From IMG/VR virus record IMGVR_UViG_2923649072_000003, positions 21,280-85,279 of that record: a DNA stretch of 64,000 nt. One strand, written 5' to 3'. Below the pieces are notes generated by a model. It was not told the DNA's origin. It worked only from the letters and a program-made list of their open reading frames with translations, and ran no database searches. Source of the stretch: a virus. Taxonomy: Duplodnaviria > Caudoviricetes. Every line of letters starts with the position of its first letter. Positions within the stretch are counted from its first letter, which is position 1. Made by a program: the position numbers and the translations under genes. Positions 2,268 to 64,000 of the stretch are shown here, one piece after another.

Positions 2268-2609
2268 CTACTCGCCGCGCTGCTCGAGCTCGGCGATGCG
2301 GCGCTTCAGCTCCGGGATCTCAGCGAGCTGCTCGGTGACCTGATCCCGCCAGGCCTGCCATCCGACAGGATCGGGCGGGATAGGGAGCGCGAAGTAGCCT
2401 GCCCCGCGACGCCTCTCAATGACGCCCTCGACGGCGAGTGCCTCCATTGCGTCCTTGATGACCTGTACGCCGACGCCCTGCTTGGCCCATTGGCTCTGGC
2501 TGGGCAGTTGCTCGCCCGGCTTGATTTCGCCTGCTGCGATGCGGCGCCTGAGGTCGTCGGCGATCTCTCTCCACTGGGCTGGCACGTGCTCATGATGCCC
2601 GACCATCAC
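2268..2609 (-). CDS. GntR-family winged-HTH regulator (KorSA/KorA-like context); start uncertain
   Basis: WREIADDLRRRIAAGEIKPGEQLPS...LAVEGVIERRRGAGYF. Confidence 0.85.
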   Translation of the reverse strand: MMVGHHEHVPAQWREIADDLRRRIAAGEIKPGEQLPSQSQWAKQGVGVQVIKDAMEALAVEGVIERRRGAGYFALPIPPDPVGWQAWRDQVTEQLAEIPELKRRIAELEQRGE

Positions 2610-2649
2610 TCGCTCGGAGCAGGCAACTGAAGTTACCTCCCCGTTCGAC

Positions 2650-2684
2650 TTGACCTAGGTCTTGCCTAGGTCTCTACTTAGGTT
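2650..2684. promoter_or_regulatory. Divergent promoter region with three TAGGT-core repeats (putative operators)
   Basis: GACCTAGGTC palindrome, GCCTAGGTC and ACTTAGGTT at 11-12 bp spacing. Confidence 0.55.
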
Positions 2685-2686
2685 CC

Positions 2687-2887
2687 ATGAAGGAACGGAG
2701 CAATGGGAGCAGGTTCCTGACGACAGGTCAGGTCGCCGACCTCCTGGGGCTCTCCCGCTGGACCATCCGCCGCAAGTGCGAGGCAGGCGACTACAAGGGC
2801 GCCGACCGTCCCGCCGGACCCACCGGCCAATGGCGCATTCCCGCCGCGGCGATCCAGCACGACGACCCACGGAAGGAACCGTCATGA
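2687..2887 (+). CDS. Excisionase-like HTH_17 DNA-binding protein
   Basis: FLTTGQVADLLGLSRWTIRRKC...GQWRIP. Confidence 0.8.
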   Translation: MKERSNGSRFLTTGQVADLLGLSRWTIRRKCEAGDYKGADRPAGPTGQWRIPAAAIQHDDPRKEPS

Positions 2888-3042
2888 CCGCCACCGCCAC
2901 CCGCCGGAAGCCCCGCGTCGCAGGCCATCCCAAGTGCCCGATCGGATGCCCCGACTGTCACCTCCCCATCAAGGGAAAGACCCGACGGGAACGGGACTTC
3001 TTCATTGGCGTCCATCGGGGCATGCACCACGGCGTTCGCTAA
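2884..3042 (+). CDS. Small Cys/His-rich protein
   Basis: ATGA overlap; CPDC...HRGMHH. Confidence 0.5.
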   Translation: MTATATRRKPRVAGHPKCPIGCPDCHLPIKGKTRRERDFFIGVHRGMHHGVR

Positions 3043-3071
3043 CCGAAACCACAGCATCCACGGGGGAAACG

Positions 3072-3236
3072 ATGATGCTCGCCGTACGAGAGACCTACAC
3101 CGGAGTCGCCCGCGAATGGCGGATCCTGCGCTCCGGCAATGAAGTCCGCACCGAACACATGACCCGCGAACAGGTCAACGACCTCCTGCGGGACCTCAAC
3201 CAGATCGACGACTGTTACTCGGCGGAGGCGGCCTGA
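3072..3236 (+). CDS. Hypothetical protein
   Basis: GGGGGA RBS; coupled to the next gene. Confidence 0.5.
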   Translation: MMLAVRETYTGVAREWRILRSGNEVRTEHMTREQVNDLLRDLNQIDDCYSAEAA

Positions 3237-3517
3237 TGGCGAATCTCAGCGAACACGTCACCGCGATGACGGGCGACAACGACATCCCCAGCATCCGTGA
3301 ACGGCGCCAGTTCCCGTGGCGCCGGGCCGTCCACTGGCTCGGGTGGGGGATCTTCCTTCCCGGCATGTGGTTCGTGATGACCGGATTCCTCGATGTCCTC
3401 TCAAGTGGAGCGGGTCTTCCCGTCTCTGCTCCTGACCCGACGACCTTCGCGGTGCGCCAGATCGCGGGAATTGCTGCAGTGGGCCTTGGCTCGCTGATGT
3501 GGGAGAAGCGGCCGTGA
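3236..3517 (+). CDS. Two-TM membrane protein
   Basis: Two hydrophobic segments; translational coupling. Confidence 0.6.
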   Translation: MANLSEHVTAMTGDNDIPSIRERRQFPWRRAVHWLGWGIFLPGMWFVMTGFLDVLSSGAGLPVSAPDPTTFAVRQIAGIAAVGLGSLMWEKRP

Positions 3518-3832: not shown

Positions 3833-3861
3833 AGTTGCCAGACCGCTGGCAATTAGCAGAG
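3833..3861. promoter_or_regulatory. Putative operator upstream of the MPF operon
   Basis: CCGCTGGCAATTAGCAGAG matches the reverse complement of 11368-11386 at 18/19. Confidence 0.6.
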
Positions 3862-3870: not shown

Positions 3871-4146
3871 ATGCACGCAGTTCACCAGGGCGCAGTCTGG
3901 CTCGCCAGCGAGACCGACGGTCCGTCCTTCAACTCGAACGGCCTCGTCGAGTGGGGCGTCCAGAACATCATCCCTCTGGTTCTGCTTGTCATCGGTATCG
4001 GCATCATTGCCAGCGCCCGCAAGGGGGCGATGAAGGACAACGCGAACACGGTGACGAACGTGATCATTGGGCTCTGTGTCATCGCCGGAGCAGCCGTGCT
4101 CTACGGGTTCGCTGGCCAGCTTACTGACCTGATGTTCTCCGCCTGA
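3871..4146 (+). CDS. VirB2/TcpD-like small two-TM conjugation protein
   Basis: GAGGAG RBS; two TM helices with basic linker ARKG; first gene of the MPF operon. Confidence 0.6.
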   Translation: MHAVHQGAVWLASETDGPSFNSNGLVEWGVQNIIPLVLLVIGIGIIASARKGAMKDNANTVTNVIIGLCVIAGAAVLYGFAGQLTDLMFSA

Positions 4147-4502
4147 TGAGGTCCCGCCCCGATGACCTGATTTACCAGGCGGACACGGTCTGGCTCGGGC
4201 CCCAAGGCATGACGTGGCCCTGGGTGGCTCGCTACAAGGCGTACGGCGTCTGGCTCCTGACCTTCCTCGGGATCCTCCTCGTCGAGGCCATCACCCCCTT
4301 GAAGGTCGGTATCCCTCCCGTCTGGGAGCTGTGCATCTCGATCCTCGCCACGTACGCCGTGATGAGCCTCGTCACCCACGAACGCCCCCTGTCGAGCCTG
4401 TGGCGCGTCCTGCTCGCGGAGGTGAAAACCCCTCGAGCGCAGCGTGTACGCCGGTCCCGCCCCGTGGACCGCTCCCTGAAAATCGTCCGGAAGGCACCCT
4501 GA
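4146..4502 (+). CDS. VirB3/TcpE-like membrane protein
   Basis: Two TM helices; directly upstream of the VirB4-like ATPase. Confidence 0.6.
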   Translation: MRSRPDDLIYQADTVWLGPQGMTWPWVARYKAYGVWLLTFLGILLVEAITPLKVGIPPVWELCISILATYAVMSLVTHERPLSSLWRVLLAEVKTPRAQRVRRSRPVDRSLKIVRKAP

Positions 4503-7162
4503 TGTTCCGCAAGAACAAACCCGCAGGCGAGGTGATGCCCAAGTCGCCGCTCGCCGCTTCCATGATCGACGGTCACATCGTCTACACCGGATCCGACGTG
4601 TGGGCGTGGCACGAGATCCCCACCCAGCGGTGGGCGTTCCGTGCCGACGGTGAGCGCCTGAACCTGATCCTCGACATCGCCTCCCGGACCGCCGCATTGC
4701 AGGGACGGCAGATCCGCATGCGGGTCACAGCTCAGCCCCTCGACGCCGCACGGTGGGCCGACACTCTCGGCGGGGAACTGACACCGGCCCCGCTGCCTGG
4801 GTACGGCGAGCATCTCGCCACGGTCCGCGACCACCTCTCCGAGGGGGTCGGTGCGCTCAAGCGCGCCTACATCGGCGTTCGGCTCACGGCCCGCCAGGGC
4901 GGCGGGCCGGTGAACGCGGCGTTCGACAAGGTGATGGGCCGGGCATCGCAGGGCCTCGAGAAGAAGGTCCGCGACGACGCGGCCATCGTCGCGGAAACCC
5001 TGGCCGGGGTGGGTATCGAGGCTGAGCCGGCGAGCGCGGCTTCGATGGAGTGGCTGATGCGTCGCTCTATCGAGCTGGGTATGCCCGCCCCGCAGGAACT
5101 CTCTCCGAGCGAGGCCGAGGGGCGCTGGGACTCCGGGGACCTGCACGAGCTGACCGAGAACGTCTCCCACGAGGCGGGCATGCTGTCCGACGAGGTGAAG
5201 GTGATCGGGCGTGGCCGGCTCGCCGGTCTCGAGCGGTGGGTGTCCGTGCTGACGGTGGGGCGGGTCGATCAGATCGAGATCCCGGACCCGGCGCACGTGC
5301 CGTGGCTCGCCGAGACCGACCGGCTCCCCTTCCCCGTCGAGTGGTCGATGAACCTGACCGTCCTGGACGGCGATCAGGCGAAGAAGGCCGTGCAGCGCAA
5401 GCTCCTCGTCATCCGGGACATGCAGAAGCACTACGCGGAGCACGGCCTGGACGAGCCGCTCGCCCTTGAGCGGCAGGTCGAGCAGGCCCGGCAGGTCGAG
5501 GACGAGATGACGACGGGCCGCGACGTTCAGGCGACCCGCGTGCACGGCTGGTACCGGGTGGCCGTGTGGGGTGAGACCCGAGAGGAGTGCCGTGAGCGCG
5601 CCCGGATCCTGATCGACCGGTACCGCAAGCGTCAGGTCACGATCGCGCGGCCGAAGGGCCAGTGGGGGCTGCTGCGTGAGTTCATCCCGGGTGAGCCGCT
5701 GTCGGACGCCGCGTACCAGCGGCGGCTCCCGGCCCTGTACTTCGCCGCCGGGGTCCCGCAGACCGCGTCGGCTCTCGGTGACGGCCGCGGCCCGTACATC
5801 GGTCACACGACGGGCGCCGGCCACCAGGCCGTCAACTTCGACACGCACTTCTCCACGGAGGTCCGGGAGACCTCAGGTCTCGTACCGATCGTCGGTGGCC
5901 TCGGGGCCGGCAAGTCGGTCCTCGCGGGGCTCATCACCTATGAGGCCGTGCGTCGCGGTGTTACGTCCGTGATGCTCGACCCGTCCGGGCCTCTCGCGGC
6001 ACTGACGAAGCTCCCCGAGCTGCAGGAACACTCGCGGCACATCGACCTGATGGCCGCCCCGGCGGGCACACTGAACCCGTACGCGGTCGTCGCGCAGCCG
6101 CGGTCGGTCGACTACTTCGGCCGGCCCGACGAGCTGGAGGAGGCCCGGACGCTCGCGGCGCAGGACCGCAAGCTCCTCGCGATCGACGTGGCGACCATGC
6201 TGCTGCCCGCCGACCTGGCGACACAGGGCCGCGCCCGGCTCCTGATCACCGAGGCGGTGCGCTCGACTCGGGGCCTGCCGACGGCGTCGCTGTGGCAGGT
6301 CGTGAAGTACCTCGAGCAGGAGAGCGACGGCAAGGACATTGCCGCGTACATGCGGGACATGGCCGAGATGCCGATGGCCCGCCTGTTCTTCCCCAATGAG
6401 GGAGACGGCCAGGCGCAGAACGACGACTCGGACGAGGCGAAGCTGACGGTCCTCACGATGGCGGGTCTGGTTCTCCCGCCGAGCTCGGTCCCGCGCGAGC
6501 ACTGGTCGACGACCGAGCAGCTCGCGGTGCCGCTGCTGCACCTCGCGTCCTGGTACGCGACTCGCACGATCTACGGCCGGCCCCGGGACGAACGCAAGCT
6601 CGTGGCCCTCGACGAGACCCACTTCCTCGGCGAATGGGGTGCGGGCCGGGCGCTGTTCAACCGACTCGGCCGTGACTCCCGGAAGTGGAACACGTGCGTT
6701 CTGGCCGCGTCGCAGAACCCGGCGGACGTGCTGGGCATGGAGGTGTCGAACTTCGTGTCGGCAGCGTTCGTGGGTCGGATCCAGGACGAGAAGGTCGCGG
6801 AGGATGCTCTGCGGCTGCTGAACGTCCCGGTCGGTGACGGGTACGAGGGTGCGCTTGCTCGGTTGTCGCCCCGGTCGATGTCGGGTCAGCGGTCGGGTGT
6901 GCGCGAGTTCGTGATGCGTGACGTCGATGGGCGCGTGGACAAGATGCGCGTCGACCTGGATCACCTGCCGAGTCTGCTGGCTGCGCTCGACACAACTGCG
7001 GCGCCAAGTTTGCCGCGACCGGAGCCGGCAGCCGACCACCATGCGGCCACGATCGAAAGCTTTGAGGAGCGGACCATTCGGCTGCCACAGCCGGCGCGGA
7101 CGCGCCGGGCGATGCCAGCCGCAGTGGATAACGTCACCGCCGGGCTGGGCGGTGGCCAGTGA
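4502..7162 (+). CDS. VirB4/TcpF/ConE-like conjugation ATPase
   Basis: Walker A GGLGAGKS, LDPSG, Walker B LVALDETH, RDSRKWN, ASQNP; real start MFRKNK at 4502. Confidence 0.9.
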   Translation: MFRKNKPAGEVMPKSPLAASMIDGHIVYTGSDVWAWHEIPTQRWAFRADGERLNLILDIASRTAALQGRQIRMRVTAQPLDAARWADTLGGELTPAPLPGYGEHLATVRDHLSEGVGALKRAYIGVRLTARQGGGPVNAAFDKVMGRASQGLEKKVRDDAAIVAETLAGVGIEAEPASAASMEWLMRRSIELGMPAPQELSPSEAEGRWDSGDLHELTENVSHEAGMLSDEVKVIGRGRLAGLERWVSVLTVGRVDQIEIPDPAHVPWLAETDRLPFPVEWSMNLTVLDGDQAKKAVQRKLLVIRDMQKHYAEHGLDEPLALERQVEQARQVEDEMTTGRDVQATRVHGWYRVAVWGETREECRERARILIDRYRKRQVTIARPKGQWGLLREFIPGEPLSDAAYQRRLPALYFAAGVPQTASALGDGRGPYIGHTTGAGHQAVNFDTHFSTEVRETSGLVPIVGGLGAGKSVLAGLITYEAVRRGVTSVMLDPSGPLAALTKLPELQEHSRHIDLMAAPAGTLNPYAVVAQPRSVDYFGRPDELEEARTLAAQDRKLLAIDVATMLLPADLATQGRARLLITEAVRSTRGLPTASLWQVVKYLEQESDGKDIAAYMRDMAEMPMARLFFPNEGDGQAQNDDSDEAKLTVLTMAGLVLPPSSVPREHWSTTEQLAVPLLHLASWYATRTIYGRPRDERKLVALDETHFLGEWGAGRALFNRLGRDSRKWNTCVLAASQNPADVLGMEVSNFVSAAFVGRIQDEKVAEDALRLLNVPVGDGYEGALARLSPRSMSGQRSGVREFVMRDVDGRVDKMRVDLDHLPSLLAALDTTAAPSLPRPEPAADHHAATIESFEERTIRLPQPARTRRAMPAAVDNVTAGLGGGQ

Positions 7163-9078
7163 TGCGGCGGGTACTGGCGGCCCTTCTGCTGGCGGTCGTT
7201 GCGCTGGTCGGTCTTGCTGGCTCGGCGGCGGCGAAAGATGGCCCAGACGTCCCGGACCCGACGAACCCGAACTGCTGGCTGTCTCCCAAGCCCGACTGCT
7301 CCGGCACGACCGACAACCTGGTCTCGGACGTCGCGGACTGCAAGGACGCCCCGGACCCCGAGGTGCCCGGCCGAGGCATCACGGGCTTCTTCACCCACAA
7401 GCCCGACAAGCTCCCAGCGGACGAAGACCCGTTCGCTGATGGTGCCCGCGTGTCGATCTACCAGGTGTACGGGTACGCAGGCCTGCGGTTCAACACGTAC
7501 GACCTGGGCTGCGGTGGCGACATCGTTCGTAACCCCGACGCCGTGGTTGGTAACGCCATAGCGAACTGGATTTTCCAGGTTCCTAAGTCGGTGATCTCGG
7601 CGACCGCGGCGCTGGCCGGCGCCGCGTTGCAGCCGGAGTTCCTGACCGCGTTCAACCCGCTCGTTCAGAATGTCGTGGACGCGCTGCACGCGGCACTGTT
7701 CTTGAAGTGGGGGTGGATCGCGGTCGCTCTCACCGGCGGCATGCTGATCTACAACTCGCGGAAGCAGGCACTCTCGTCGTCGGCAGGCATGGTCGGCTGG
7801 GTGCTCCTGGTCATGATCGTGGTGTCCGCCGTGCTCCGCTGGCCGCTCGCGGCGGGTGAAGCTGCGGACAAGACGTCGGCTGCGGTGCTCACGTCCGTGT
7901 CGTCCGGGATCACGGGCACCGACCCTGCGATGGCGTCGAGCCCGGGTGAGTCTGGCGCTTCGCTGATGCACGAGTCGGTGCTGTATGACTCTTGGCTGTC
8001 TGGCACTTTCGGCAGCAGCGACTCGAAGACCGCTAGGGAGTATGGGCCGAAGATCTTCGCGGCGACTGCGCTGACGTGGCGTGAGGCTGCGGTTCTCGAG
8101 CAGGACCCTGATGAGGGCAAGAAGATCATCGAGGAGAAGAAGGAAGCCTTCAAGGAGCTCGCCGACCGGCTGAAGGAAGAAGACCCCGACGCGTACGCGA
8201 ACCTCTCCGGGAAGCGATCCGACACCCGGGTCGGGTTCACATTTCTCGCGCTGGCCGCCGCGTTCTGCCTTGTCCCGTTCCTCTTCATGGCCGCGCTCCT
8301 CGTCATCGGGGCGCTGATCATCATCCGCGTCGGCGTCATGGTCACACCCGGCCTCGCGACCCTCGCCCTCTTCCACCAGGCCCGGGGAATCCTCATCGGG
8401 ATCGGCAGCACCATGGCCGCCGCGATGGTCAACAGCCTCGTCTTCGGGTCCATGTCGAGCGTCTTCATCCTCGCAATGGGACAGCTCATGGTCTCCGATG
8501 GCATCCCCGGCTGGCTGCGGATCATCCTCATGCTCTTGCTGACCGTGGTGTTCTGGGTGGCTCTGCGGCCTTTCCGGAAGTTGACGCGAATGGTGTCGGC
8601 ATCCAGCCTGCAGAGCACGTTCCGGGACGCCGCAGGCTCACCTCTGGCCGAGGCGAAGAAGGGCGCGAAGACCGTCGGGAAGATCGCGACCACAGCTGCC
8701 GGGGTGTTCGCCGGGGCTCGGCTCGACGCTGCCGTCGGTGACCTGAAGTCGGAGCCGAAGAAGCGCGCAGAGGCCGACCCCGACGTCACCGTTGAGGTCC
8801 GGGACCTGCCGGCATCCCCGCCACCGCCCCGCCGCCGGGCGATCGAGGCGCCGCCGAAGCCGCAGCTGCCCGGTCCGCCGAGCGGGAATCCGTCGCCCAT
8901 GGGGCCCGGGCCGACCCCGCCCGCACTCCCTCCGGCCGCGGCGCCCGAGCCGCCGGACTCTCCCGCCCCGGTCAGGAAGATCGTGACCCGCCCCGGCGAC
9001 GACGGACAGCCCCTGGAAGGCGTCGTCATCCCGCCGTCGTGGATGCCGCCGGTCCGCTACGAGATGGAGGACGCGTGA
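7159..9078 (+). CDS. VirB6/TcpH-like polytopic membrane protein with Pro-rich tail
   Basis: Signal-like N-terminus, many TM helices, follows VirB4. Confidence 0.75.
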   Translation: MMRRVLAALLLAVVALVGLAGSAAAKDGPDVPDPTNPNCWLSPKPDCSGTTDNLVSDVADCKDAPDPEVPGRGITGFFTHKPDKLPADEDPFADGARVSIYQVYGYAGLRFNTYDLGCGGDIVRNPDAVVGNAIANWIFQVPKSVISATAALAGAALQPEFLTAFNPLVQNVVDALHAALFLKWGWIAVALTGGMLIYNSRKQALSSSAGMVGWVLLVMIVVSAVLRWPLAAGEAADKTSAAVLTSVSSGITGTDPAMASSPGESGASLMHESVLYDSWLSGTFGSSDSKTAREYGPKIFAATALTWREAAVLEQDPDEGKKIIEEKKEAFKELADRLKEEDPDAYANLSGKRSDTRVGFTFLALAAAFCLVPFLFMAALLVIGALIIIRVGVMVTPGLATLALFHQARGILIGIGSTMAAAMVNSLVFGSMSSVFILAMGQLMVSDGIPGWLRIILMLLLTVVFWVALRPFRKLTRMVSASSLQSTFRDAAGSPLAEAKKGAKTVGKIATTAAGVFAGARLDAAVGDLKSEPKKRAEADPDVTVEVRDLPASPPPPRRRAIEAPPKPQLPGPPSGNPSPMGPGPTPPALPPAAAPEPPDSPAPVRKIVTRPGDDGQPLEGVVIPPSWMPPVRYEMEDA

Positions 9079-9557
9079 TGAAGCTCCTGTTGCAGCACAA
9101 GTGGGCCGTGACCGTGGCGGTCATCGCAGCGATCGCGATCGTAGTGTCCGGTCGTTTCGGCGGGCGCGACCTGGCGCCGCCCGCCCCGACGTCTACGGCG
9201 CCGGCCGGTGCGTATACGGTCGACAGTCTCCTGTCGGTCAGCCGGGCCGCCGAAGCCGCGCAGAATTTCGTGCGCCTGTGGGCATTGCCCCTGCCTGGCG
9301 ACACGACCGAAACGTGGGAGGAGCGGCTCGATGGGCTCGTCACCCACGACCTCGGGCGCGGGCTGCAGGTCACCGACCTTGGCAACCTGCCGCGTCTCGG
9401 CCTGTCGAAGGCGACGCCGCCGGACGTGCGAGCGGTGTCGACGCGATCGGCGACGGTCGTCGTGACCCTGGAGGACGGCTCGGAGATTGCGTGCGAGGTC
9501 GTCATTTACGGGCCTGGATATGCGGTCGGCAGCTTCGCCGGGATCGACGGCGACTGA
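9075..9557 (+). CDS. VirB8/TcpC-like bitopic protein
   Basis: N-terminal TM, AAQNFVRLW...WEERL, beta-rich C-terminus consistent with an NTF2-like fold. Confidence 0.55.
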   Translation: MMKLLLQHKWAVTVAVIAAIAIVVSGRFGGRDLAPPAPTSTAPAGAYTVDSLLSVSRAAEAAQNFVRLWALPLPGDTTETWEERLDGLVTHDLGRGLQVTDLGNLPRLGLSKATPPDVRAVSTRSATVVVTLEDGSEIACEVVIYGPGYAVGSFAGIDGD

Positions 9558-10591
9558 TGCGCAAGGGATGGGTTATCGCAGGCCTCTTGGCTCTCGCCGC
9601 GCCGCTGTCGCTGATCGTGCCGGTCGTCGGGATGGTCATGGTCACCGGCATCTCGACCGACGGGGAGGTGCCGCCCAGCGGCACGCAGCCTGTGTCGTGT
9701 GGGCAGCCCGCCGGTGAGGCGATCAGCCTCACGTCGGCGGAGCAGCGGGCGAACGCGAAGACGATCATCTCGGTCGGTGTCGAGCTGGGCGTGCCAACCA
9801 AGGGCCTGATCATCGCAATCGCCGTGGCCCGGCAGGAAAGTCGGATCGAGAACCTGCCGTACGGCGACCGTGACTCGGTCGGCCTGTTCCAGCAGCGGGC
9901 CGGCTGGGGCACTCTCGCTGAGCGCATGGATCCGCCGACCTCGGCCCGGAAGTTCTTCACCGGCGGAACCGAGGCCGGGACCACCGGGCTCCTCGACACG
10001 CCCGGCTGGGAGGGCATGTCGGTCGCCCGGGCGGCGCAGGCAGTCCAGCGCTCTGCTTACCCGGCGGCGTACGCACAGTGGGAGGGGATGGCGACCACCG
10101 TCGTGCAGCAGGTCCTCGGGTCCGGGCCGGCTCAGGAGTGCACGCCCGAGCAGACGCCGGGCGCATGTCCCGCCTCGACGGACCTGTCCGGCTACCCGAA
10201 CGGCGAGATCCCGTCATCCGCACTGTGCAAGATCGCGTTCGCACCTGAGCATCGACTGCGGTCTGACGCCGCACTGGGGCTCGAGCGCCTCAATGTCGCC
10301 TATCGCGAGCACTTCCGCCGGGACATCTGCATCACCGACTCTTACCGTGACCTAGCTACCCAAGTTCGCCTGAAGCGGGAAAAGGGGGCCCTTGCGGCGA
10401 CCCCGGGGACAAGTAACCACGGGTGGGGCCAGGCGCTCGACCTCTGCGACGGGATCAACACGGGGCCCTCCGCGGAGACATACCGGTGGATGAAGACGAA
10501 CGCCCCGACGTACGGCTGGGTACATCCCGCCTGGGCTGAACCCGGCGGCTCAGGGCCCCTCGAGTTTTGGCACTGGGAGTTCGACACATGA
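9557..10591 (+). CDS. Conjugative peptidoglycan hydrolase (lytic-transglycosylase-like plus M15/VanY peptidase)
   Basis: AVARQES...DSVGLFQQR; SYR...PGTSNHGWGQALD...EFWHWEF. Confidence 0.85.
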   Translation: MRKGWVIAGLLALAAPLSLIVPVVGMVMVTGISTDGEVPPSGTQPVSCGQPAGEAISLTSAEQRANAKTIISVGVELGVPTKGLIIAIAVARQESRIENLPYGDRDSVGLFQQRAGWGTLAERMDPPTSARKFFTGGTEAGTTGLLDTPGWEGMSVARAAQAVQRSAYPAAYAQWEGMATTVVQQVLGSGPAQECTPEQTPGACPASTDLSGYPNGEIPSSALCKIAFAPEHRLRSDAALGLERLNVAYREHFRRDICITDSYRDLATQVRLKREKGALAATPGTSNHGWGQALDLCDGINTGPSAETYRWMKTNAPTYGWVHPAWAEPGGSGPLEFWHWEFDT

Positions 10592-10689
10592 CGATCAACC
10601 CCGCCTGGACCCGGGCGCCTACTAATTACCAACTCGCTGGCAGCCAGCCGCTTGTTACCAGCCGATCAGCAAGTCGCTACCCTGCCCCC

Positions 10690-10992
10690 ATGGAGAAGCT
10701 GCCCGCCTCGTTCACTGAGCTGCTCAGCGTGATGATCCAGTACGTCGAGCTCAGGGACCGACTTCGGGACGTCCGCGAGACCGCGGCCGGCGACCTCCAC
10801 GAGCTCGGATGGCCAGCCCAGCGAATCTCGGACGAGCTGAAGGCGCAGCTCGAGGCGCTGAACTTGTCCGACTCCCAGCTTCGTTCGCTCGGCGTGTCCA
10901 GGGCGACGATCGATGCGGACATCCGGTCCTGGCGCCGGGAGCAGGAGAAGGCCGTGACGTCCGGTCGGCGGAAGCGAGTGTCCGGCGACTGA
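10690..10992 (+). CDS. Putative HTH-like regulator (probably leaderless)
   Basis: GWPAQRISDEL...LGVSRATIDADIR; TACCCT -10 six nt before ATG. Confidence 0.5.
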   Translation: MEKLPASFTELLSVMIQYVELRDRLRDVRETAAGDLHELGWPAQRISDELKAQLEALNLSDSQLRSLGVSRATIDADIRSWRREQEKAVTSGRRKRVSGD

Positions 10993-11045
10993 CCGGGTGA
11001 TTGTCCGGCCTTCCGATGTCCGGCCGCCGGGGTTGAGGTTGTCCG
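10979..11045 (-). repeat. Four CCGGACA copies on the minus strand
   Basis: TGTCCGG at 10979, 11002, 11017 and 11040. Confidence 0.65.
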
Positions 11046-11194
11046 GTCTGGTGGTGCGCGGTTCCGGCCGGCCGCTGAGCCGCCCACTTCACCTCTCGGG
11101 ACTTCCCGGATTGATCGCGCTGAGCTTGCTCTCTCTTCGGTGAGGAAGCTTGCCCCGCAAGCTGATCCACCATTTCCCAGCTCTGGGTGCACTG

Positions 11195-11386
11195 CAGCTT
11201 GAGACCTCCTCGGTAAACCTCGTCGGCCTCAAGCTGAGCTTACCCATGCTGTCAACTAGTTGCTAGCTGGCTGGCAACTAGCAACCTGCGAGGAAGCATC
11301 CTCGCTGACTCATCCTGCTGTCACTTGCGATTCGCGGGCCCGCCGCTGAGCCTGGTCGCTCGTGTCGCTCTGCTAATTGCTAGCGG
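11195..11386. promoter_or_regulatory. Intergenic control or transfer-origin candidate with inverted repeats
   Basis: CAGCTTGAG/CTCAAGCTG (11195/11228), CTAGTTGC/GCAACTAG (11256/11274), operator copy at 11368-11386. Confidence 0.5.
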
Positions 11387-11403
11387 ATTGGTAATGTGAA
11401 GTC

Positions 11404-50806: not shown

Positions 50807-50821
50807 GGCTGAGATGACGCC

Positions 50822-52192: not shown

Positions 52193-52193
52193 G

Positions 52194-52394
52194 TCACTCC
52201 TCAGTGAGGTTGATGGACACGAGGTCCGGGTACTCCTCAGCCACCGCAAGGAGACCGAGGGTTGCGGTGCGGGTGATCGCGGTGACAGCAGCGCAGACGC
52301 GCCCCTCATCACCGACCTGGCCCGGCCCGCGTTCGTGGCCGGTGACCTCGATGTGCGTAACCCCTTCGCGGAGAAGCGCATGAATCGCGATCAT
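52194..52394 (-). CDS. Minimal Prp-like (DUF464) cysteine protease
   Basis: IEVTGHE...VCAAVTA His/Cys dyad signature. Confidence 0.75.
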   Translation of the reverse strand: MIAIHALLREGVTHIEVTGHERGPGQVGDEGRVCAAVTAITRTATLGLLAVAEEYPDLVSINLTEE

Positions 52395-53158: not shown

Positions 53159-53255
53159 CGCGGCTCTCCTCGCATGGTGAACACCGGGCCGCATCGCGCG
53201 CACCCGGTTCGGTGAGGTGGTGCACCCGCCCGCACATCGCGTGCAGGCAGGGGAA

Positions 53256-54767: not shown

Positions 54768-54780
54768 CAGGCACCTCCGG

Positions 54781-56424: not shown

Positions 56425-56441
56425 CCGGACCTACCCGAGAC

Positions 56442-56888
56442 TCAAGCGCCGCGAGCGCGAGCGCGATCCAGTGCAGTCACCGTCGCACGCCCAGACCCGG
56501 CACCCTTCGGCTGATGCGCGCCCCGAGGCGTACCGCGACGCTGAGGCACATTCCCAACCTCATCCGGCAGCCTCAACGCCGCCAGCAACTGCTTCAGCAA
56601 GTTCTGCTGCTGCCGCGCCTCACCCAACGCGCTCGACACCACCAACAGCAACGCGTCACCGTCATCACGCGGAAGCTCCACGCGCGCCCACGTCTCCACA
56701 TCGCCCGAAAGCAGCTCGTCGAGCTTCTCCAGGCGATCCGCGCAACGGCATGCCTCAAGCAGAATCTCAACCTCGGCCGGCTTGCCGCGCATGTCCACGC
56801 CACCCGTAACCGCCACCCACAGCGCGGCACCACGACGGCCCAGACGAGCCGGCACATCCATCAGGAAGCCAGCAGGAGCTTCAGTCAT
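56442..56888 (-). CDS. Terminase small subunit
   Basis: LGRRGAALW...LLEACRCADRLEKL...EARQQ..LKQLLAALRLPD; directly upstream of TerL. Confidence 0.8.
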   Translation of the reverse strand: MTEAPAGFLMDVPARLGRRGAALWVAVTGGVDMRGKPAEVEILLEACRCADRLEKLDELLSGDVETWARVELPRDDGDALLLVVSSALGEARQQQNLLKQLLAALRLPDEVGNVPQRRGTPRGAHQPKGAGSGRATVTALDRARARGA

Positions 56889-56949
56889 CACAACCCCCTC
56901 CGCGGCATCGCGCCACGAACGAGACCCGACAGGCATCGCGCCCACCAGG

Positions 56950-57119
56950 CAGACAGTTGAACAGGAAACATTTCAGGTGCTCTGGACCGCGAGCTACCTA
57001 GCCGACGGTGCCCCGAGGGGTGGGGGGAGTGGGGACATCCCCCCTGGGTTCCTCGGGCGCCGGTCTGCGTTGGCGACCAGGGAGCGCGGGTTCAGTCCGG
57101 CGCCCGAGGAGTCTGAGTG
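56950..57119. other. Candidate cos/packaging region
   Basis: Non-coding gap between HNH and terS with G and C runs; strand composition inverts across it. Confidence 0.45.
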
Positions 57120-57512
57120 TTATGCGGCGTTCCATCCGCCGGGTTGTGCGTGCCCGGTGTGGGATGAGTGGCATGGGTGGCAGAGCGGCCGTCCGTGTCG
57201 CGGGTCGTCGGGGTTGAGCTTGGAGTCGACGAGTTCGCGGCGGGAGAGCGGCCAGTGGTCGGCGACGGTGGCCTTTAGGGTGCAGGGTCCGACGTGCCTG
57301 TTGGTTGGTGCGGTGCAGCCTTCGCAGGCGCACATGCCGCCGTTCTTCTTCAGCACGGCGGCGCGGAAATCGTTGCGGTGTCTGCGTCCGTAGCCGCGTT
57401 GTGTGGCGTTGCCGCGGGCCATGTCTGCTGCGGCCTTGCAGTCGGGGCAGCGGCCGGATCCTTGGAAGACGTTGGGGCAGCCGGGCTTGGAGCAGACGGA
57501 CCAGCGGGCCAT
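57120..57512 (-). CDS. HNH endonuclease (terminase-associated)
   Basis: CSKPGCP, ATQRGYG, ATVADH, GRPLCHPCHSSHT. Confidence 0.88.
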   Translation of the reverse strand: MARWSVCSKPGCPNVFQGSGRCPDCKAAADMARGNATQRGYGRRHRNDFRAAVLKKNGGMCACEGCTAPTNRHVGPCTLKATVADHWPLSRRELVDSKLNPDDPRHGRPLCHPCHSSHTGHAQPGGWNAA

Positions 57513-57514
57513 GG

Positions 57515-57613
57515 TCAGACGGCTGGCTGCGAGTGCTGAAACAGCAGCAGCCCGACAGTGAGCATGGCGATCGAGAGCAGGCAACAGACGACGAATGCTT
57601 GCCCGCGTTCCAT
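57515..57613 (-). CDS. Tiny single-TM protein
   Basis: MERGQAFVVCCLLSIAMLTVGLLLF; TGATG coupling. Confidence 0.4.
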   Translation of the reverse strand: MERGQAFVVCCLLSIAMLTVGLLLFQHSQPAV

Positions 57614-57735
57614 CAGGCCTTCCACGTGTAGTACGCGCCGATGATGGCGACAGCCCAGATGGGCGCGGAGATCAGCAGTCCCAGCACGAGGCCACGGAAG
57701 AACCGCGGCTCGCGAGACCGCGGATCGGCGTCCAC
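57613..57735 (-). CDS. Tiny single-TM protein
   Basis: FFRGLVLGLLISAPIWAVAII; overlaps the holin stop. Confidence 0.5.
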   Translation of the reverse strand: MDADPRSREPRFFRGLVLGLLISAPIWAVAIIGAYYTWKA

Positions 57736-58013
57736 TAGAGGATGTGCGTACCGGCGTCGGGGTCGTCGGTGGGCTCGGCGACGGTGACTTCGGGCACGAG
57801 CGATGCAGTGCCGTTGGATGCGGCTCCGGCGGACGCGACGGACGTGAGGAGCGACAGGACGGCACCACCGAGGCCGAAGCCGAGAGCGTCGACCCAGGGC
57901 ACGGACCAGACGTCGATGGCGCCGGCTCCGAGCGCGAGGATGGTCGACTGGGCGGCGGTCTTGGCGGATCGCTCGGCGGCGTCTCGCCAGAAGGTGCGGG
58001 TGAAGGTGGCCAC
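57735..58013 (-). CDS. r1t-type holin
   Basis: FTRTFWRDAAERSAKTAAQ...VLSLLTSVAS. Confidence 0.88.
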   Translation of the reverse strand: MATFTRTFWRDAAERSAKTAAQSTILALGAGAIDVWSVPWVDALGFGLGGAVLSLLTSVASAGAASNGTASLVPEVTVAEPTDDPDAGTHIL

Positions 58014-58026
58014 GATGTTCTCCTGG

Positions 58027-58593
58027 CTAGTCGGCGGGTGGCCGCTGTCGTGGCGGCCTGCGTGCTGGCGGCTCGTGCATTTCGAGGCCCGCCTTGGCGA
58101 TGAGCGCCCATGCGGCCTGGGCCCACGTACGGAGCTCGGTGAGTTCGGAGCGGGTGTCGGCGAGCTGGTCGGTGAGTTCGGTTTCGCGTTGCTGGGATCG
58201 TTCGCGGTCTGCTTCGAGGCGGTCGATCCTGAGCGCGAGCGAGTCGATCTGCCGGCGGGCTTCTTCGAGGGAGTGGTCTTGGCGCCCGAGTTGCTGCGCC
58301 TGCCGGTCGATCTGTTGTTCTTGCCGCTCGATCTGCGCCCTGTACGGCTCGATGAGCGACAGCGCGGATCCGGTGAGCGTTGCCGCCGCGTTGGCCCAGG
58401 CGCCGTCTCCGCTGGCTTGGGAGGCGCGGGCGTCGGCGGCGGTTTTACGGCGGGAGAACCAGGCGCCGAGGATGGTGGCGAGGACGCCAGTGGCTCCGGC
58501 AGCAACGAGGAGTCGGATGATCAGGTCTGAGAGGCTGCCGGTTTCGGCGGGCGGAGCGTCTGCGGCGAGGTAGGCAAGATCCGACAGGTGCAT
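58027..58593 (-). CDS. Single-TM coiled-coil lysis-cassette protein
   Basis: TM followed by a long coiled coil. Confidence 0.7.
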   Translation of the reverse strand: MHLSDLAYLAADAPPAETGSLSDLIIRLLVAAGATGVLATILGAWFSRRKTAADARASQASGDGAWANAAATLTGSALSLIEPYRAQIERQEQQIDRQAQQLGRQDHSLEEARRQIDSLALRIDRLEADRERSQQRETELTDQLADTRSELTELRTWAQAAWALIAKAGLEMHEPPARRPPRQRPPAD

Positions 58594-59039
58594 CAGGTCC
58601 CGCTTTCGCCAGAGCCCCCAAAGTGCCGGCGTGCGGCCCTCAGCTTCCGTGTGACTTGCACGAGCCGCGTCATTGCGGCTCCTGCGATTCCCCCATGGAG
58701 GATCGCGGTGGGTACGCCGCGCCTGCCGAGTTCGAAGGCCGCGAGGGCGTAGATGGCGCCGCCGAAGAAGAGCGCGACGAGCCCGACGCGTTTGATCTCG
58801 ACGCCAGTGAACGGGTTGCGCCACATGAGCCCGGCGAATGCGACTGCACCGCCGAGCGCGTAGAGCGTCGCCCAGATGCACGCCAGAGTCGGGGATAGGC
58901 TCTGCCGGATGCTCGAGGACGATCCGAGGCCGGTGAGGATGCTGATGCCGAGCGCTGACGTGGACAGCAGGACGGTCGCCTCGAAAGCGTTGACGGGGCC
59001 TGCGGGTCGCGGCGCGAGGGTCTTCGCGAACCGTCTCAC
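58593..59039 (-). CDS. Four-TM membrane protein (holin-like)
   Basis: Four hydrophobic helices; coupled. Confidence 0.7.
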   Translation of the reverse strand: MRRFAKTLAPRPAGPVNAFEATVLLSTSALGISILTGLGSSSSIRQSLSPTLACIWATLYALGGAVAFAGLMWRNPFTGVEIKRVGLVALFFGGAIYALAAFELGRRGVPTAILHGGIAGAAMTRLVQVTRKLRAARRHFGGSGESGT

Positions 59040-59440
59040 TGGGGGAGCCTGCGCAGGCCTACCGCGAGGACGATGCAGGAGCCGGCGAGCATCCCGTACG
59101 CGAATGGTCCGGTGGCTGCGGCGGTAGGGATCTGCATAGCCGCCTGGGCCAGGGAGAGCGCGAAGAACATGAACCAGACGCCCTCCGCGAAGAGGGTCGC
59201 ACTCAGGGTCCGGTAGTGCGCCTTGCCGAATGTCGCCCACAGCACGATGAGCCCGAGGACGACGAGAGCGCCGCCCCACGTGTCCTGCTCTCCGGGCAGC
59301 GCGCGGGCTGTGTTGAAGCTAGGCCCGCCGAACCGTTCCTTGCCGCCGAGGACGAGTCCCGCCCCGAGCAGGAGGCCGCCAAGTCCGAGGACGCCGGCGA
59401 CTCCCTGCACGATCCAGCCGAGGGCGAGACGCTGGGGCAT
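59036..59440 (-). CDS. Four-TM membrane protein (holin-like)
   Basis: Four hydrophobic helices directly after the endolysin. Confidence 0.7.
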   Translation of the reverse strand: MPQRLALGWIVQGVAGVLGLGGLLLGAGLVLGGKERFGGPSFNTARALPGEQDTWGGALVVLGLIVLWATFGKAHYRTLSATLFAEGVWFMFFALSLAQAAMQIPTAAATGPFAYGMLAGSCIVLAVGLRRLPQ

Positions 59441-59442
59441 GG

Positions 59443-60213
59443 CTACTGCTTGGCGCCGGGCGGGTTACCCGTGGCCTTGGCGAGCGCGGCTTTGATGTCG
59501 TTGATGCCAGCGGTGACGAGCTTGTGCCGTGCGCCGTCGTTCTGGATCTGCTGGTCCTGGTTGAGCTCGACGTTCGACAGCGCACCGACGATGGTCATGT
59601 CGCGCGCGGGGGCGTCGTCATCGTTGACCTTCTGGTTGGGCACCATCCGGTCGGTGAGGAGCATGTCGCGGATGCCGGCCAGGACGAGCTTGGCGGACTG
59701 CTCAGCGATGGCCTTGCGGTCTTCGGGGGTCACGTCGTCCTCCTGGGTGAGTCGCCGGATCTTGTCTGCCGCCTGACGGACGGAACGCTCGCCAGCGACG
59801 ACCTCGAAGTGCATGTCGTCGACGACGGTGGAGAAGTCGCCGCCCCAGCGGATGACTCGGTCGCCTCGGTCGTCGGTGATGTCGGCGAGGATTCGGCGGA
59901 GCGCGCGGACCTGCTTGGCGGTGAAGGTGCCTCGCTTGCCTCGGACGTGCCTGAGGGCGTTGAGGTCCCAGGCGGTCGCGCTCGCATGGCAGGAGATTGA
60001 GGTGGTCGAGCCGCGGACGTTGCGGACGGCGTAGGACCAGTCGTCGAGGACGGGGCCGTGAACCTTCTCGACCTCGCGATCGAAGCGGGTGATGAGGTAT
60101 TCGCCGATGACGGCGACGTCCCGGTTGGCTGCGGCGAAGGACCCGCCGGCTGCCGTGAACCAGATGAGCTGGCCGCGGTCTCGGACGGTCCATCCGTTGT
60201 AGGACGTCGCCAT
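59443..60213 (-). CDS. Endolysin, M15-family peptidase
   Basis: SYNGW, WSYAVR, SCHASATAWDLN, RWGGDF, DDMHFE. Confidence 0.9.
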   Translation of the reverse strand: MATSYNGWTVRDRGQLIWFTAAGGSFAAANRDVAVIGEYLITRFDREVEKVHGPVLDDWSYAVRNVRGSTTSISCHASATAWDLNALRHVRGKRGTFTAKQVRALRRILADITDDRGDRVIRWGGDFSTVVDDMHFEVVAGERSVRQAADKIRRLTQEDDVTPEDRKAIAEQSAKLVLAGIRDMLLTDRMVPNQKVNDDDAPARDMTIVGALSNVELNQDQQIQNDGARHKLVTAGINDIKAALAKATGNPPGAKQ

Positions 60214-60240
60214 TTTGGCCCTCCTACGTGTTGGGCATGG

Positions 60241-60316
60241 GGGGCCGGGACAGGATTCGAACCTGCGACCTTCGGCTTATGGGGCGGACGAGCTGACCTA
60301 GCTGCTCTACCCGGAC
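60241..60316 (-). tRNA. Degenerate tRNA-Met(CAT)-like element
   Basis: GAGC/GCTC D-arm, GCAGG-TTCGAAT-CCTGT T-arm, loop CCCATAA; mismatches in acceptor and anticodon stems, C at position 33. Confidence 0.7.
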
Positions 60317-61490: not shown

Positions 61491-61756
61491 GCGAGGACCG
61501 CCGGGTGGTCAACGCGCCCGAGGAATTCGAGGCATTGGCAGGCGCCGTGTCCATCGTCTCCCCCGACGGGCGTCCAAGACGGACAGACGGACGTGACCTC
61601 GGCGTGGTGGCCGCAGGGGTCGTTCTCGAAACCCTCTTCACAACCGCAACGTTCGGGGTCGTGGAAGCCTCGTGCTCGTCGCCCGCACTGGTCGCAGGCC
61701 AGGAACGGGTCGCCGAAGACCACGGTGACGTGGGTCCGGGTGTGCGTCGCGCTCAT
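61487..61756 (-). CDS. Cys-rich hypothetical protein
   Basis: AGGAG RBS; CDQC, NDPCGH, CPSW. Confidence 0.6.
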   Translation of the reverse strand: MSATHTRTHVTVVFGDPFLACDQCGRRARGFHDPERCGCEEGFENDPCGHHAEVTSVCPSWTPVGGDDGHGACQCLEFLGRVDHPAVLA

Positions 61757-61926
61757 CGCTTCTCCTGCTCGTTCTCCTGGCCGAGTTTCCTTGTGGCCGC
61801 TTTCTCCCACGCCCGCACTGGTCCGGATCGACGATCACGGTCAGCGCAGTGACGCCGGCATCCGCATCCGGGCCAGCGTGACCGACCGATCATCCGGGCC
61901 GTGGGGCCGAGATCCTTTGTCTTCAC
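61753..61926 (-). CDS. Small hypothetical protein (not in the ORF track)
   Basis: GTGA/ATGA overlaps at both ends. Confidence 0.45.
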   Translation of the reverse strand: MKTKDLGPTARMIGRSRWPGCGCRRHCADRDRRSGPVRAWEKAATRKLGQENEQEKR

Positions 61927-62279
61927 TGGCCCTCCGGTGCAGGCAACATGGGATGACGGGCGAACGCATCGGTGAGCATCGCCTTCAGTTCCGTTTCGTG
62001 CGCCTTCTGGCGACGAGCTCCTCGCAGTTCGCGGAGTCTCTGCTCTTGGCCCTCGATGCGCCTCACCCGCTGGATCCGCTTGTAGGCCCGGGACTGTGCG
62101 CGGGTCATGGGAATGGGTGGCCGGCGACTGATGCGGACGGGTACTGGCGTGGCCCAGAGAATGCCCGGGTCGCTGCGGAAGACGTCGCCCCAGTGGATTT
62201 CGCCAGCGAGTGACTGAGGGATGACCGAGCGCAGGGGGAAGCGTTCTTGTCGGGCCAGGCGGCGCTTTAGGGTGGTCAA
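61923..62279 (-). CDS. Basic hypothetical protein
   Basis: GAGG RBS; coupled to the next gene. Confidence 0.5.
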   Translation of the reverse strand: MTTLKRRLARQERFPLRSVIPQSLAGEIHWGDVFRSDPGILWATPVPVRISRRPPIPMTRAQSRAYKRIQRVRRIEGQEQRLRELRGARRQKAHETELKAMLTDAFARHPMLPAPEGQ

Positions 62280-62420
62280 GGCGGTCAGCCGACCTCTCTA
62301 TGACTCGCCCACGCCAGCAGGTCTGACATCAGCTTCGGCGCAGCGAGGTACGGCATGCGGGCTCCCTGGGTGTGCACTGACGAGTGTCGGCAGTCTATGG
62401 CAGTCAAAAGGGCTTCTGTG

Positions 62421-62642
62421 TTAGCCCGCCTTGCGCAGGGTCTGACTGGCCTGCCTTCGCCCTAGTGCGACCTCGAAAGCGATGACCTCGTCGGGGTGCC
62501 AGTACCGGTAGCGGCCGATGAGGAATCCCGGGTGGACCTGGCCGGCGCGGATCCGGTCGCGCACGGTCTCTTCCTTCCGGACGGCATACCTCTCGCAGAG
62601 GTCGGTGATGTCCCAGAGTCCCTTGGGCTTCGGTCTGGCCAT
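62421..62642 (-). CDS. xis: Excisionase (AlpA/Xis-like HTH)
   Basis: LWDITDLCERY..RKEETVRDRIRAG...GRYRYWHPDEV; divergent from the integrase. Confidence 0.75.
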   Translation of the reverse strand: MARPKPKGLWDITDLCERYAVRKEETVRDRIRAGQVHPGFLIGRYRYWHPDEVIAFEVALGRRQASQTLRKAG

Positions 62643-62679
62643 GTCTCACACCCGTCTTTCGCTCGTTTGGGCTCCTGTC

Positions 62680-62708
62680 GGGACGGTACGGGCTACCGTT
62701 GGGACGGT
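62680..62708. promoter_or_regulatory. Repeats in the int/xis divergent promoter
   Basis: GGGACGGT at 62680 and 62701; ACGGTA/TACCGT dyad. Confidence 0.4.
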
Positions 62709-62737
62709 CAACTGCGCCGACGCGTGAGGGGTGTGTC

Positions 62738-64000
62738 ATGGGATCGGTCGAGACGCTGTACGACGGCAAGGGCAAGGTGCGCGGCTACCTGGCGCGCTGG
62801 CGTGACGAGGATGACCAGGGGAGAAAGAAGACGTTCCTGCTCAAGGACGGCCTCAGAAAGAAGGACGCCGAGAAACACGCCGAGGACGAGGAGCGCAAGA
62901 AGCGCATCCCTGAACCGCCGCCGACGCCAGAAGACCTGTGGGACAGGACGGTCACCGTCGCCGAGCTCGCGGGTGAGAGCATCACGCTGCGCGTCCCGCA
63001 GCTAGCCGAGAACACGATCTTGTGTATGCGCAGCAGGTGGCGCAATCACATCGTGCCGACACAGCTCGGACGCACGCCAGCCTTCGACGTCCAATGGACC
63101 CAGGTGCAAACCTGGGCCAACGAGATGCGTGAGGGGAACTCGAAGGGCGCCGTAGAGGCGTGCCTTGGGTTGATCCGCCGCGGTATGGAAATCGCAGTGC
63201 GGGACAAGCGGATCCCGTCATCGCCCGCAGCGCACAGGATCTATATCGCAGGCGACGAGCCTCCCGAAGATGATCAGGCAGACGCGATCGTGGTGCTGGA
63301 AGTGCCTGAGGTGGCGTGCATCCTGGCGCACCTCGAAGGCGTGATGCGGCTGATTGCCACGATCCAGGCGCACACCGGAGCGCGAGTACACGAGGTCCTA
63401 GGCCTGCTGAAGTCGGACATCGATTTGAAGCAGCGCGCGATCCGGTTCCGCAAGCAGGCGAAGAGCCGAACGCCGGGCGCCAGGGCCAAGCTCAAGACCG
63501 GGGCGTCGCGACGAGACGTCGTCATCGGCGCGGTTCTCGCCGGAGAGCTTGAGTCCTGGCTTGCTGACCATCCTGGAGACGGCTGGCTCTGCCTTCTGGA
63601 CGGCGAGGCCGTGAAGTACGACCAGTACAAGCCGGCACTGGAGAAGGCCGCCAGGGATGCCGCTCTGGAGATGGAGGCAGCCCAGCGAGAGCGGGTCGCG
63701 CGCGGGGAGGAAGACTCGGGCTGGGAGTTGTCGAGGCTCGCGCGGCTCGACGAGCTGGGCGAGATCCGGAGCCATGCTTTCCGGCACCACCATGCGTCCG
63801 TCCTGATCGGCATGAATGTGCCGCTTCTCGCGATCGCTCGGCGCCTGGGGCACTCGACGATCGGTCAGATCGAGAAGACGTACGGGCATCTGATGAAGGT
63901 CGTGGACGAAGCGGTGCGGGATGCCGTGGACGGGGCTTGGAGGGGACACGTGGCGCAGCGTGCCCTGTCCGTGCCCTCAGCGCTGCCGCAAGTGCCCTGA
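62738..64000 (+). CDS. int: Tyrosine integrase
   Basis: Arm-binding YLARWRDEDDQG; catalytic TGAR, KT, HAFRH, LGH, TYGH. Confidence 0.95.
   Translation: MGSVETLYDGKGKVRGYLARWRDEDDQGRKKTFLLKDGLRKKDAEKHAEDEERKKRIPEPPPTPEDLWDRTVTVAELAGESITLRVPQLAENTILCMRSRWRNHIVPTQLGRTPAFDVQWTQVQTWANEMREGNSKGAVEACLGLIRRGMEIAVRDKRIPSSPAAHRIYIAGDEPPEDDQADAIVVLEVPEVACILAHLEGVMRLIATIQAHTGARVHEVLGLLKSDIDLKQRAIRFRKQAKSRTPGARAKLKTGASRRDVVIGAVLAGELESWLADHPGDGWLCLLDGEAVKYDQYKPALEKAARDAALEMEAAQRERVARGEEDSGWELSRLARLDELGEIRSHAFRHHHASVLIGMNVPLLAIARRLGHSTIGQIEKTYGHLMKVVDEAVRDAVDGAWRGHVAQRALSVPSALPQVP

Follow-up and report, generated by a model that had tools for sequence, protein, structure and literature searches.

Phages and conjugative elements are treated as separate classes of mobile DNA, and the hybrids that have been described either move only as virions or consist of two stacked, separable elements. 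A 64,000-nucleotide stretch of viral DNA, here called the window (IMG/VR record IMGVR_UViG_2923649072_000003, positions 21,280 to 85,279), raises the question of whether one element can be both. It contains genes for a contractile-tailed virion together with genes for a mating pore and a DNA motor. The window is G000:C1:5871883-5935882, part of a prophage in the chromosome of a soil bacterium whose genome (G000) is a single contig of 8.07 Mb with 70.7% GC. In the reading regarded here as probable, a double-stranded (ds) DNA transfer system, of the type found in the integrative and conjugative elements (ICEs) of actinomycetes (AICEs) and in linear plasmids, has been stably fused into a temperate phage family, and contact transfer would be an alternative to lysis.

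Boundaries and phage genes of the element

The prophage is 86,185 bp in length, including both attachment (att) repeats, and the window is its right 64 kb, or about three-quarters. The first-pass annotation of the window had proposed one continuous element and a search for attL and attR in the flanking sequence. A perfect 24-bp direct repeat, present in only two copies in the genome, bounds the prophage (Table 1). The single unit is thus confirmed, but it begins 22 kb to the left of the window. At the att repeat the prophage interrupts a gene for a major facilitator superfamily (MFS) transporter. The integration site was located in one of six other genomes of the genus (G040), where the two flanks join to give an intact 419-aa MFS gene. 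A tRNA as the integration target is ruled out, as the att site is in the MFS gene; the annotation had seen no tRNA target, but a tRNA-Met is present in the late region. The prophage has 66.9% GC compared with 70.7% genome-wide, and the lower GC, about 66-67%, begins 22 kb to the left of the window and continues to its right end.

In a self-comparison of 100 kb, the att pair is the only repeat with E<1e-3 apart from the collagen fibre. No internal att site was found at this threshold, in agreement with the claim that none lies between 17 and 29.6 kb. Only one of ten tyrosine recombinase matches in the genome, and neither of two serine recombinase matches, is within the prophage; the integrase is therefore single, as had been noted, and there is no second one near the left of the window. 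The att repeats, the adjoining integrase and the intact empty site in a relative are those of a temperate phage. The transfer module has no recombinase or att repeats of its own, as a nested composite would have. A second prophage with this module, in another species of the genus (G039), is likewise integrated at att sites, and neither is the extrachromosomal replicon that defines a phage-plasmid.

Could phage and conjugative element have been joined in assembly? There is one genome assembly, and the X1 contig, which covers 11-31 kb end to end without difference, is possibly its source. However, runs X2 (same sample) and X3 (another study) cover 30 of 30 bins of 11-31 kb with overlapping or abutting pieces and have no well-supported alternative joint across this region (two joints in X2 rest on just 21 letters at one side), and G039 independently has the same gene order. 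A chimera is largely refuted and hardly credible, and the att sites, the empty site, the spanning contig and the order in G039 together speak for one continuous element.

The contractile-tailed virion, lysis and integration set that had been claimed is also borne out. PHROGs matches were obtained for nine of ten virion proteins (TerL, portal, scaffold, major capsid, sheath, tube, tape measure, hub and baseplate wedge), with further family matches for TerS, adaptor, head closure, fibres, holin and endolysin. The TerL, portal, major capsid, tail and lysis genes have open frames, and the virion and lysis set looks complete. The gene order HNH-terS-terL is associated with cos packaging, and its presence here suggests this mode. 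Replication genes are of the phage initiator and DnaB type (best 25 of 38 families); the initiator has no match in G039.

Transfer module and DNA motor

Transfer genes had been placed at 3871-17183, and the core of this set is confirmed, one accessory gene apart (see below). VirB4 matches PF12846 (E 3e-29), and NF052333 with E 1.5e-38 but under the cut-off of that family. The VirB8-like protein has a fold that best matches TraM of pIP501 (Z 11.3, root-mean-square deviation 2.3, 99 aligned), and the pCW3 TcpC-type entry 3ub1 gives Z 9.9. VanY and FtsK matches support the wall hydrolase and the motor. VirB2 and VirB3 show no family match, and their names are putative, drawn from protein size, hydrophobicity and place in the gene order. 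Of two further labels, the adhesin is putative, with an Ig-like match only, below threshold, and the Spd/DUF2637-like assignment is a lead from an Atlas match (0.78-0.90) with no match in Pfam. The core transfer reading frames are all open. The nonsynonymous rate (dN) is below the synonymous rate (dS) in seven of seven transfer-gene comparisons, with dS near saturation, and these codon data weakly favour function of the module.

VirB4 with VirB6, VirB8 and hydrolase partners, and a coupling protein of FtsK/TcpA fold, are properties of ICEs that have a type IV secretion system (T4SS). The first-pass annotation had proposed an element able to spread by virion and by mating, for which support here is partial. 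Relaxase families PF08751, PF02486, PF03432 and PF13814 have no match anywhere in G000, with positive controls, and a Pfam scan of 52 + 39 (91) element proteins gave no relaxase family. With no relaxase of the four families found, mating cannot use the ICE route of relaxase and single-stranded DNA, short of a relaxase of some other, undescribed kind, and the element is not a classical ICE. The mating route fits instead the relaxase-free FtsK/TraB dsDNA route of actinomycete elements; TraB is described as translocating dsDNA without a relaxase (PMC3548315, PMC12857230).

The predicted structure of the motor (predicted local distance difference test 81) best matches FtsK and TcpA of pCW3. The N-terminus is HNH-like: a His and a Cys-x-x-x-His pattern are kept across the family alignment, and Atlas returns HNH clusters for it (0.90; TM score 0.53-0.59). 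An HNH profile matches 44 of the 60 top homologues and 50 of 151 homologues, counts that are partly circular because the profile was built from that same alignment. One motor homologue carries the Pfam HNH domain, and the G039 motor also has an HNH-like domain. The window motor itself has no match to Pfam HNH, and the structure model is weak in that region. HNH-membrane-FtsK fusion proteins (P0121-P0271) form a large family.

A palindromic operator-like site, TRCYAR-N4-YTRGYA, is found six times in the genome, four of these before virB2, the 100-aa gene and ftsK, where 0.07 are expected in shuffles; the pattern was derived from the module sites themselves. The G039 prophage has an exact palindrome before the 100-aa homologue and three near-copies before ftsK. 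None is found before its virB2 or in the chromosomal pore operon of the host. With operator copies upstream of its gene, the 100-aa protein is a candidate autoregulator. In its position, the GntR gene at the head of the module resembles the KorSA family of GntR repressors described in PMC2440964. Together with the integrase and the FtsK/SpoIIIE-type Tra protein, a GntR repressor is an AICE feature; the AICE replication proteins RepSA, RepAM and Prim-pol are not among the Pfam families found in the element.

Recurrence and origin of the module

The G039 prophage is ~82 kb in length and has a 25-bp att repeat in lon. It is spread over two contigs, and the join is inferred because both contig ends carry the same tandem-repeat array; this 24-bp array, in the early arm, breaks the assembly (G039:C2 1-220, end of C4). 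Genes in common with G000, in the same order, are the repressor, RecE, HTH pair, GntR, excisionase-like gene, hydrolase, 100-aa protein, FtsK, Spd, membrane hydrolase, Ig-like protein, SsgA-like protein, endolysin and integrase, at 33-73% identity. For VirB4 and TerL the identity is just 35% and 29%. The virion is of the non-contractile type, with another capsid family, major tail proteins and a 1493-aa tape measure, and no sheath is among the best 25 of 37 families. Thus the order of the module is kept at 30-70% identity with another att site and another virion type, which is counted in favour of a module stably built into phages. The SsgA-like septation protein of both prophages (G039:C2 33781-34212; Table 1) could place or remodel cross-walls for spread or lysis.

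A third version of the module is on an IMG/VR phage contig (G049), a fragment of 36.6 kb (CheckV 82%). On one side of its six pore genes and AICE-type FtsK are small genes of early type, and on the other are genes for lysis, tail and head. The fragment ends before TerL, and neither an integrase nor TerL was matched in it.

Of 29 genomes or records selected for a search with a TerL profile, 8 gave a match, and VirB4 was adjacent only in G000 and G039. The three phage VirB4s are not one clade. In a tree of 24 rows each of them belongs to a different supported clade together with non-phage sequences, and their monophyly is rejected by the approximately unbiased test (p-AU 6e-59; the group was set by context, but after an earlier tree). 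Pore genes were thus gained or replaced more than once. Searches of IMG/VR with a single VirB4, FtsK, the adhesin pair and FtsK subset A6 gave no relatives, and FtsK subset A8 gave 80 generic FtsK loci, none with a VirB4 match in the flanks. A pattern search of genome contigs gave at least two loci, both non-phage, with patterns that are unspecific and a family range that is under-sampled. Among GenBank phages, VirB4 matched 3 of 50,697 records, at 25%, and FtsK matched 91 records, over the ATPase core only.

Where do the pore genes come from? The host chromosome has a six-gene pore operon of its own (G000:C1:2100984-2108556, L024), which is syntenic with the window genes and 76, 56, 68, 55, 40 and 49% identical to them. 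VirB4 matches are found in 23 of 48 other genomes of the host family and in all six of the genus. The window VirB4 lies inside the clade of host-family chromosomal copies but outside the genus copies. A recent origin of the window copy from the host in which the phage resides is rejected, because the chromosomal copy of that host clusters with those of its genus. Among named organisms, Kineosporiaceae and Nocardioidaceae have the nearest VirB4 homologues, and the closest of all (P0001) is on a 49.7-kb contig. The six-gene operon, without motor or relaxase, is fixed beside upp-tadA in the host family and is a scattered orphan cassette in other Actinomycetes (L176-L195).

The motor family was matched in 16 of 401 and 5 of 301 sampled genomes. 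Three large non-phage elements (G640:C10, G298:C12 and G529:C26) carry an FtsK-plus-pore module, two of them with Tad-pilus-like genes. The 24-kb linear Streptomyces plasmid pSSFR2 has GntR, DUF2637, an FtsK-family protein and six pore genes, and no annotated relaxase. The module is a general relaxase-free actinomycete transfer kit. As it is found on a plasmid and on non-phage elements, what is new is its stable place in phages.

Other features of the prophage and its host are given in Table 1. Three tail-region proteins with esterase/lipase-type domains are found beside the collagen-like fibre (29690-35060, minus strand). Some phage genes (L002 6563-6973; window 18318-19512) have close paralogues in the host, namely those for a VG64-like lipoprotein (86% identical), an SAV_6107-like HEPN protein (69%) and a DUF6504 protein, which points to recent exchange between phage and host. 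Two further prophages, both lacking pore genes, are present in G000, as are a small AICE-like element (integrase, Rep, Tra) and a sheath/LysM locus that resembles a contractile injection system.

Table 1. Positions of features in the window (unless another sequence is named), with strand and remarks
Feature	Position	Strand	Remarks
attL	G000:C1:5849733, 22,150 bases left of window		24-bp direct repeat
Left arm: repressor/cro-like pair, RecE- (exonuclease VIII) and RecT-like genes, resolvase, WhiB, methylase, HNH, replication initiator, DnaB	left of window		
Convergent helix-turn-helix (HTH) HTH_3 regulator pair	744-1142; 1139-1414	+; -	60% and 73% identical in G039 prophage
GntR-family repressor	2268-2609	-	KorSA/TraR-like position; divergent from next gene
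Excisionase-like HTH_17 gene	2687-2887		divergent from GntR
Palindromic operator-like site	3836-3851; copies 10627, 11261, 11378; near-copy 10656		first site upstream of virB2
VirB2/TcpD-like small membrane protein	3871-4146	+	76% identical to host chromosomal copy
VirB3/TcpE-like small membrane protein	4146-4502	+	56% identical to host chromosomal copy
VirB4/TcpF-type ATPase	4502-7162	+	886 aa, Walker A and B motifs
VirB6/TcpH-like polytopic membrane protein	7159-9078	+	weak NF046089 match (E 1e-6), under cut-off
VirB8-like NTF2-fold protein	9075-9557	+	N-terminal membrane helix
VirB1-like wall hydrolase	9557-10591	+	lysin-like domain and VanY peptidase
100-aa conserved protein	10690-10992	+	operator copies upstream
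FtsK/TraB/TcpA-type DNA motor	11404-13752	+	N-terminal HNH-like domain, two membrane helices, ATPase, small C-terminal beta domain
Spd/DUF2637-like protein	13749-14753	+	membrane helices, coiled coil, HTH
Membrane metal-hydrolase-like gene (presumably YdjM)	14750-15602 (about)	+	apparently frameshifted in window, open in G039
Secreted Ig-like protein, putative adhesin	15756-17183	+	52% identical in G039
Phage small-gene region, including GNAT	17595-29633		many genes common to G039
Antirepressor	21378-21962		in small-gene region
SsgA-like protein	25532-25969	+	in small-gene region
Contractile tail: fibres, esterase-domain proteins, baseplate, hub, LysM initiator, tape measure (747 aa), chaperone, tube, sheath	29690-47810	-	
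Neck and head: terminator, closure, adaptor, major capsid, scaffold, portal, TerL, TerS, HNH	47810-57584	-	
Lysis genes: holin, membrane proteins, endolysin (59443-60213)	57735-60316 region	-	
tRNA-Met(CAT)	60240-60316	-	late region, directly upstream of endolysin gene; not att site
Excisionase-like HTH gene	62421-62642	-	next to integrase
Tyrosine integrase	62738-64000	+	single, adjoining attR; genome-wide recombinase search
attR	64012-64035, just past right end of window		24-bp direct repeat
Additional host elements	G000:C1 about 1.075-1.12 Mb, 2.630-2.638 Mb, 4.385-4.415 Mb, 6.36 Mb		

Proposed route and related systems

A phage with a transfer system of the AICE/linear-plasmid type might work as follows. 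The single integrase would excise the 86-kb unit, as the att sites suggest, and the excised circle could go lytic by way of the phage replication, virion and lysis genes. Alternatively, the transfer module would be expressed under its own GntR/operator control. The secreted protein and the wall hydrolase would make cell contact and open the wall, VirB2/3/4/6/8 would assemble the mating pore, and a membrane-anchored hexamer of FtsK/TraB type, aided by the Spd-like protein, would pump double-stranded phage DNA into a neighbouring cell in contact or into the adjoining hyphal compartment. The DNA end that is otherwise made by a relaxase may come from the HNH domain of the motor fusion, and the same integrase would insert the DNA in the recipient. 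A fuller version of this proposal, to which slightly less than an even chance is given, is that these are dual-route viruses, spreading by lysis with virions or by non-lytic contact transfer, that HNH-FtsK cuts and pumps DNA in a terminase-like manner, and that pore operons were repeatedly re-captured from host chromosomes and plasmids.

Several observations, set out in this and the next two paragraphs, weigh against the proposal. TraB has a winged-helix C-terminal domain, and a domain of this kind is not in the motor model. No clt-like array was found, i.e. no 8-mer is present more than three times in five intergenic stretches scanned. The dN/dS of FtsK is about 0.83, and the complete elements found are only two, plus one fragment. 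In addition, the accessory membrane hydrolase-like gene of the module appears frameshifted, and the X1 contig, with the limit given above, agrees. The frameshift, and the GntR and excisionase-like genes that head the module as in AICEs, might be looked at as marks of a decaying passenger, an AICE or plasmid that came into a prophage by insertion or recombination. Tn916 is nested in this manner, with its own integrase and excisionase, in the GenBank record of streptococcal phage IPP61, the only GenBank phage case inspected. Such a passenger is quite improbable here: the module lacks its own integrase, Rep and relaxase, is not flanked by repeats, has an unchanged position among the homologous phage genes of two prophages that have diverged past nucleotide-level identity, and has a GC content at third codon positions (0.87) that matches the remainder of the phage (0.84-0.86).

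The pore genes also occur without a motor. The host operon adjoins tadA-upp-plsC in G000 and in three of three relatives checked, with no motor nearby, and 19 of 20 further VirB4 loci have no FtsK match in a stretch of up to 20 kb, some of these ended by contig ends. The six genes can therefore serve something besides self-transfer. Moreover, the regions around the motor relatives inspected resemble plasmids or ICEs; a pore operon adjoins the motor gene in four of them, and virion genes adjoin it in none. Perhaps the module is cargo for lysogenic conversion that serves the host by mobilizing the chromosome or other elements, or by making a cell-contact junction, with the phage spreading only as virions. 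The position of the window pore genes within the clade of host-family chromosomal copies is consistent with this, and TraB systems are described as mobilizing the chromosome also (PMC12857230). However, a motor, an Spd-like protein, a GntR repressor and a common operator accompany the pore genes in the phages and are absent from the host operon, and for a host that has pore genes already a second copy would be of little use unless it serves the phage. Cargo thus appears unlikely.

The virion half presents another difficulty. The closest cultured relative of the major capsid protein is that of Streptomyces phage Kromp (45% identity, 58-kb genome), and other cultured relatives have genomes of 46-54 kb. 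The virion half may therefore not package 86 kb. This raises the question of whether the element is an ICE in the making that moves mainly by mating, exceeds its own head in length and makes particles that are empty, partial or tailocin-like. The genome of the best TerL relative is 43 kb in length, and a Kromp gene between portal and scaffold has no counterpart in the G000 prophage, both of which agree with this idea. On the other hand, the TerL relatives among the matches listed have genomes of 40-94 kb, and those next to the best include 90-94-kb phages; the head, tail and lysis genes are open, and G039 has kept another full virion set at ~82 kb. Capsid size can also change within a family. 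An ICE in the making is rather unlikely.

A phage that carries its own transfer machinery would spread without killing the host and without a surface receptor. Adsorption resistance would be bypassed, and a mycelium could be colonized compartment by compartment. The element makes testable how relaxase-less T4SS loci of actinobacteria work, loci that the account in PMC3548315 ascribes to unknown relaxases; the HNH-FtsK fusion is a candidate relaxase substitute. It also bears on the role of the motor-less six-gene pore operon kept in host chromosomes.

A phage family with its own pore and motor was not found described in the literature, although supplements (e.g. of PMC3218068 and PMC7969092) might list such elements. 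The AICEs pSAM2, SLP1 and pMEA300 and the TraB/Spd plasmids are among the closest known systems, and are portrayed as integrative, with GntR, an FtsK-type motor and Spd-like proteins and without a relaxase (PMC2440964, PMC3218068, PMC12857230). AICEs are 10-20 kb in length, have RepSA, RepAM or Prim-pol, need no T4SS and make no virion. The G000 prophage differs in its phage initiator and DnaB, six-gene pore, HNH domain on the motor and full virion, and in that no clt array was found. Relaxase-free linear plasmids (SLP2/SAP1 of Streptomyces and enterococcal pELF) are reported to use an FtsK motor with partners like VirB4 and VirB6 and to have no nickase (PMC13492992). A homologous module is present on pSSFR2, and the motor of this one plasmid has no HNH match. 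Linear plasmids, however, are substrates with ready-made ends, whereas the G000 element is an integrated phage.

The mating systems of class MPF_FA with TcpA (Tn916, ICEBs1 and pCW3) resemble the module in the TcpF-type VirB4, the TcpC-type VirB8 fold and the TcpA-like motor fold. They carry MOB_T or MOB_M relaxases, as outlined in PMC3548315 and PMC12857230, and make no virion. The G000 prophage, in contrast, has no Rep_trans match and no second tyrosine recombinase.

Phage and plasmid or conjugation genes have been found on one molecule in phage-plasmids (P1 and N15) and in Hodor megaplasmids with prophages (PMC7969092, PMC12282955, PMC12934698), and they are together in the IPP61 record also. 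Phage-plasmids move as virions, and the Hodors and IPP61 are two separable elements, each with its own recombinase. The G000 prophage differs from the latter in having one att pair, one integrase and conservation at the level of a phage family. Phi1207.3 of Streptococcus pyogenes is a prophage that meets the operational definition of conjugation (PMC4260502). The main text of that paper mentions neither type IV secretion nor a relaxase and leaves the mechanism open, whereas the G000 prophage encodes a dedicated transfer machine.

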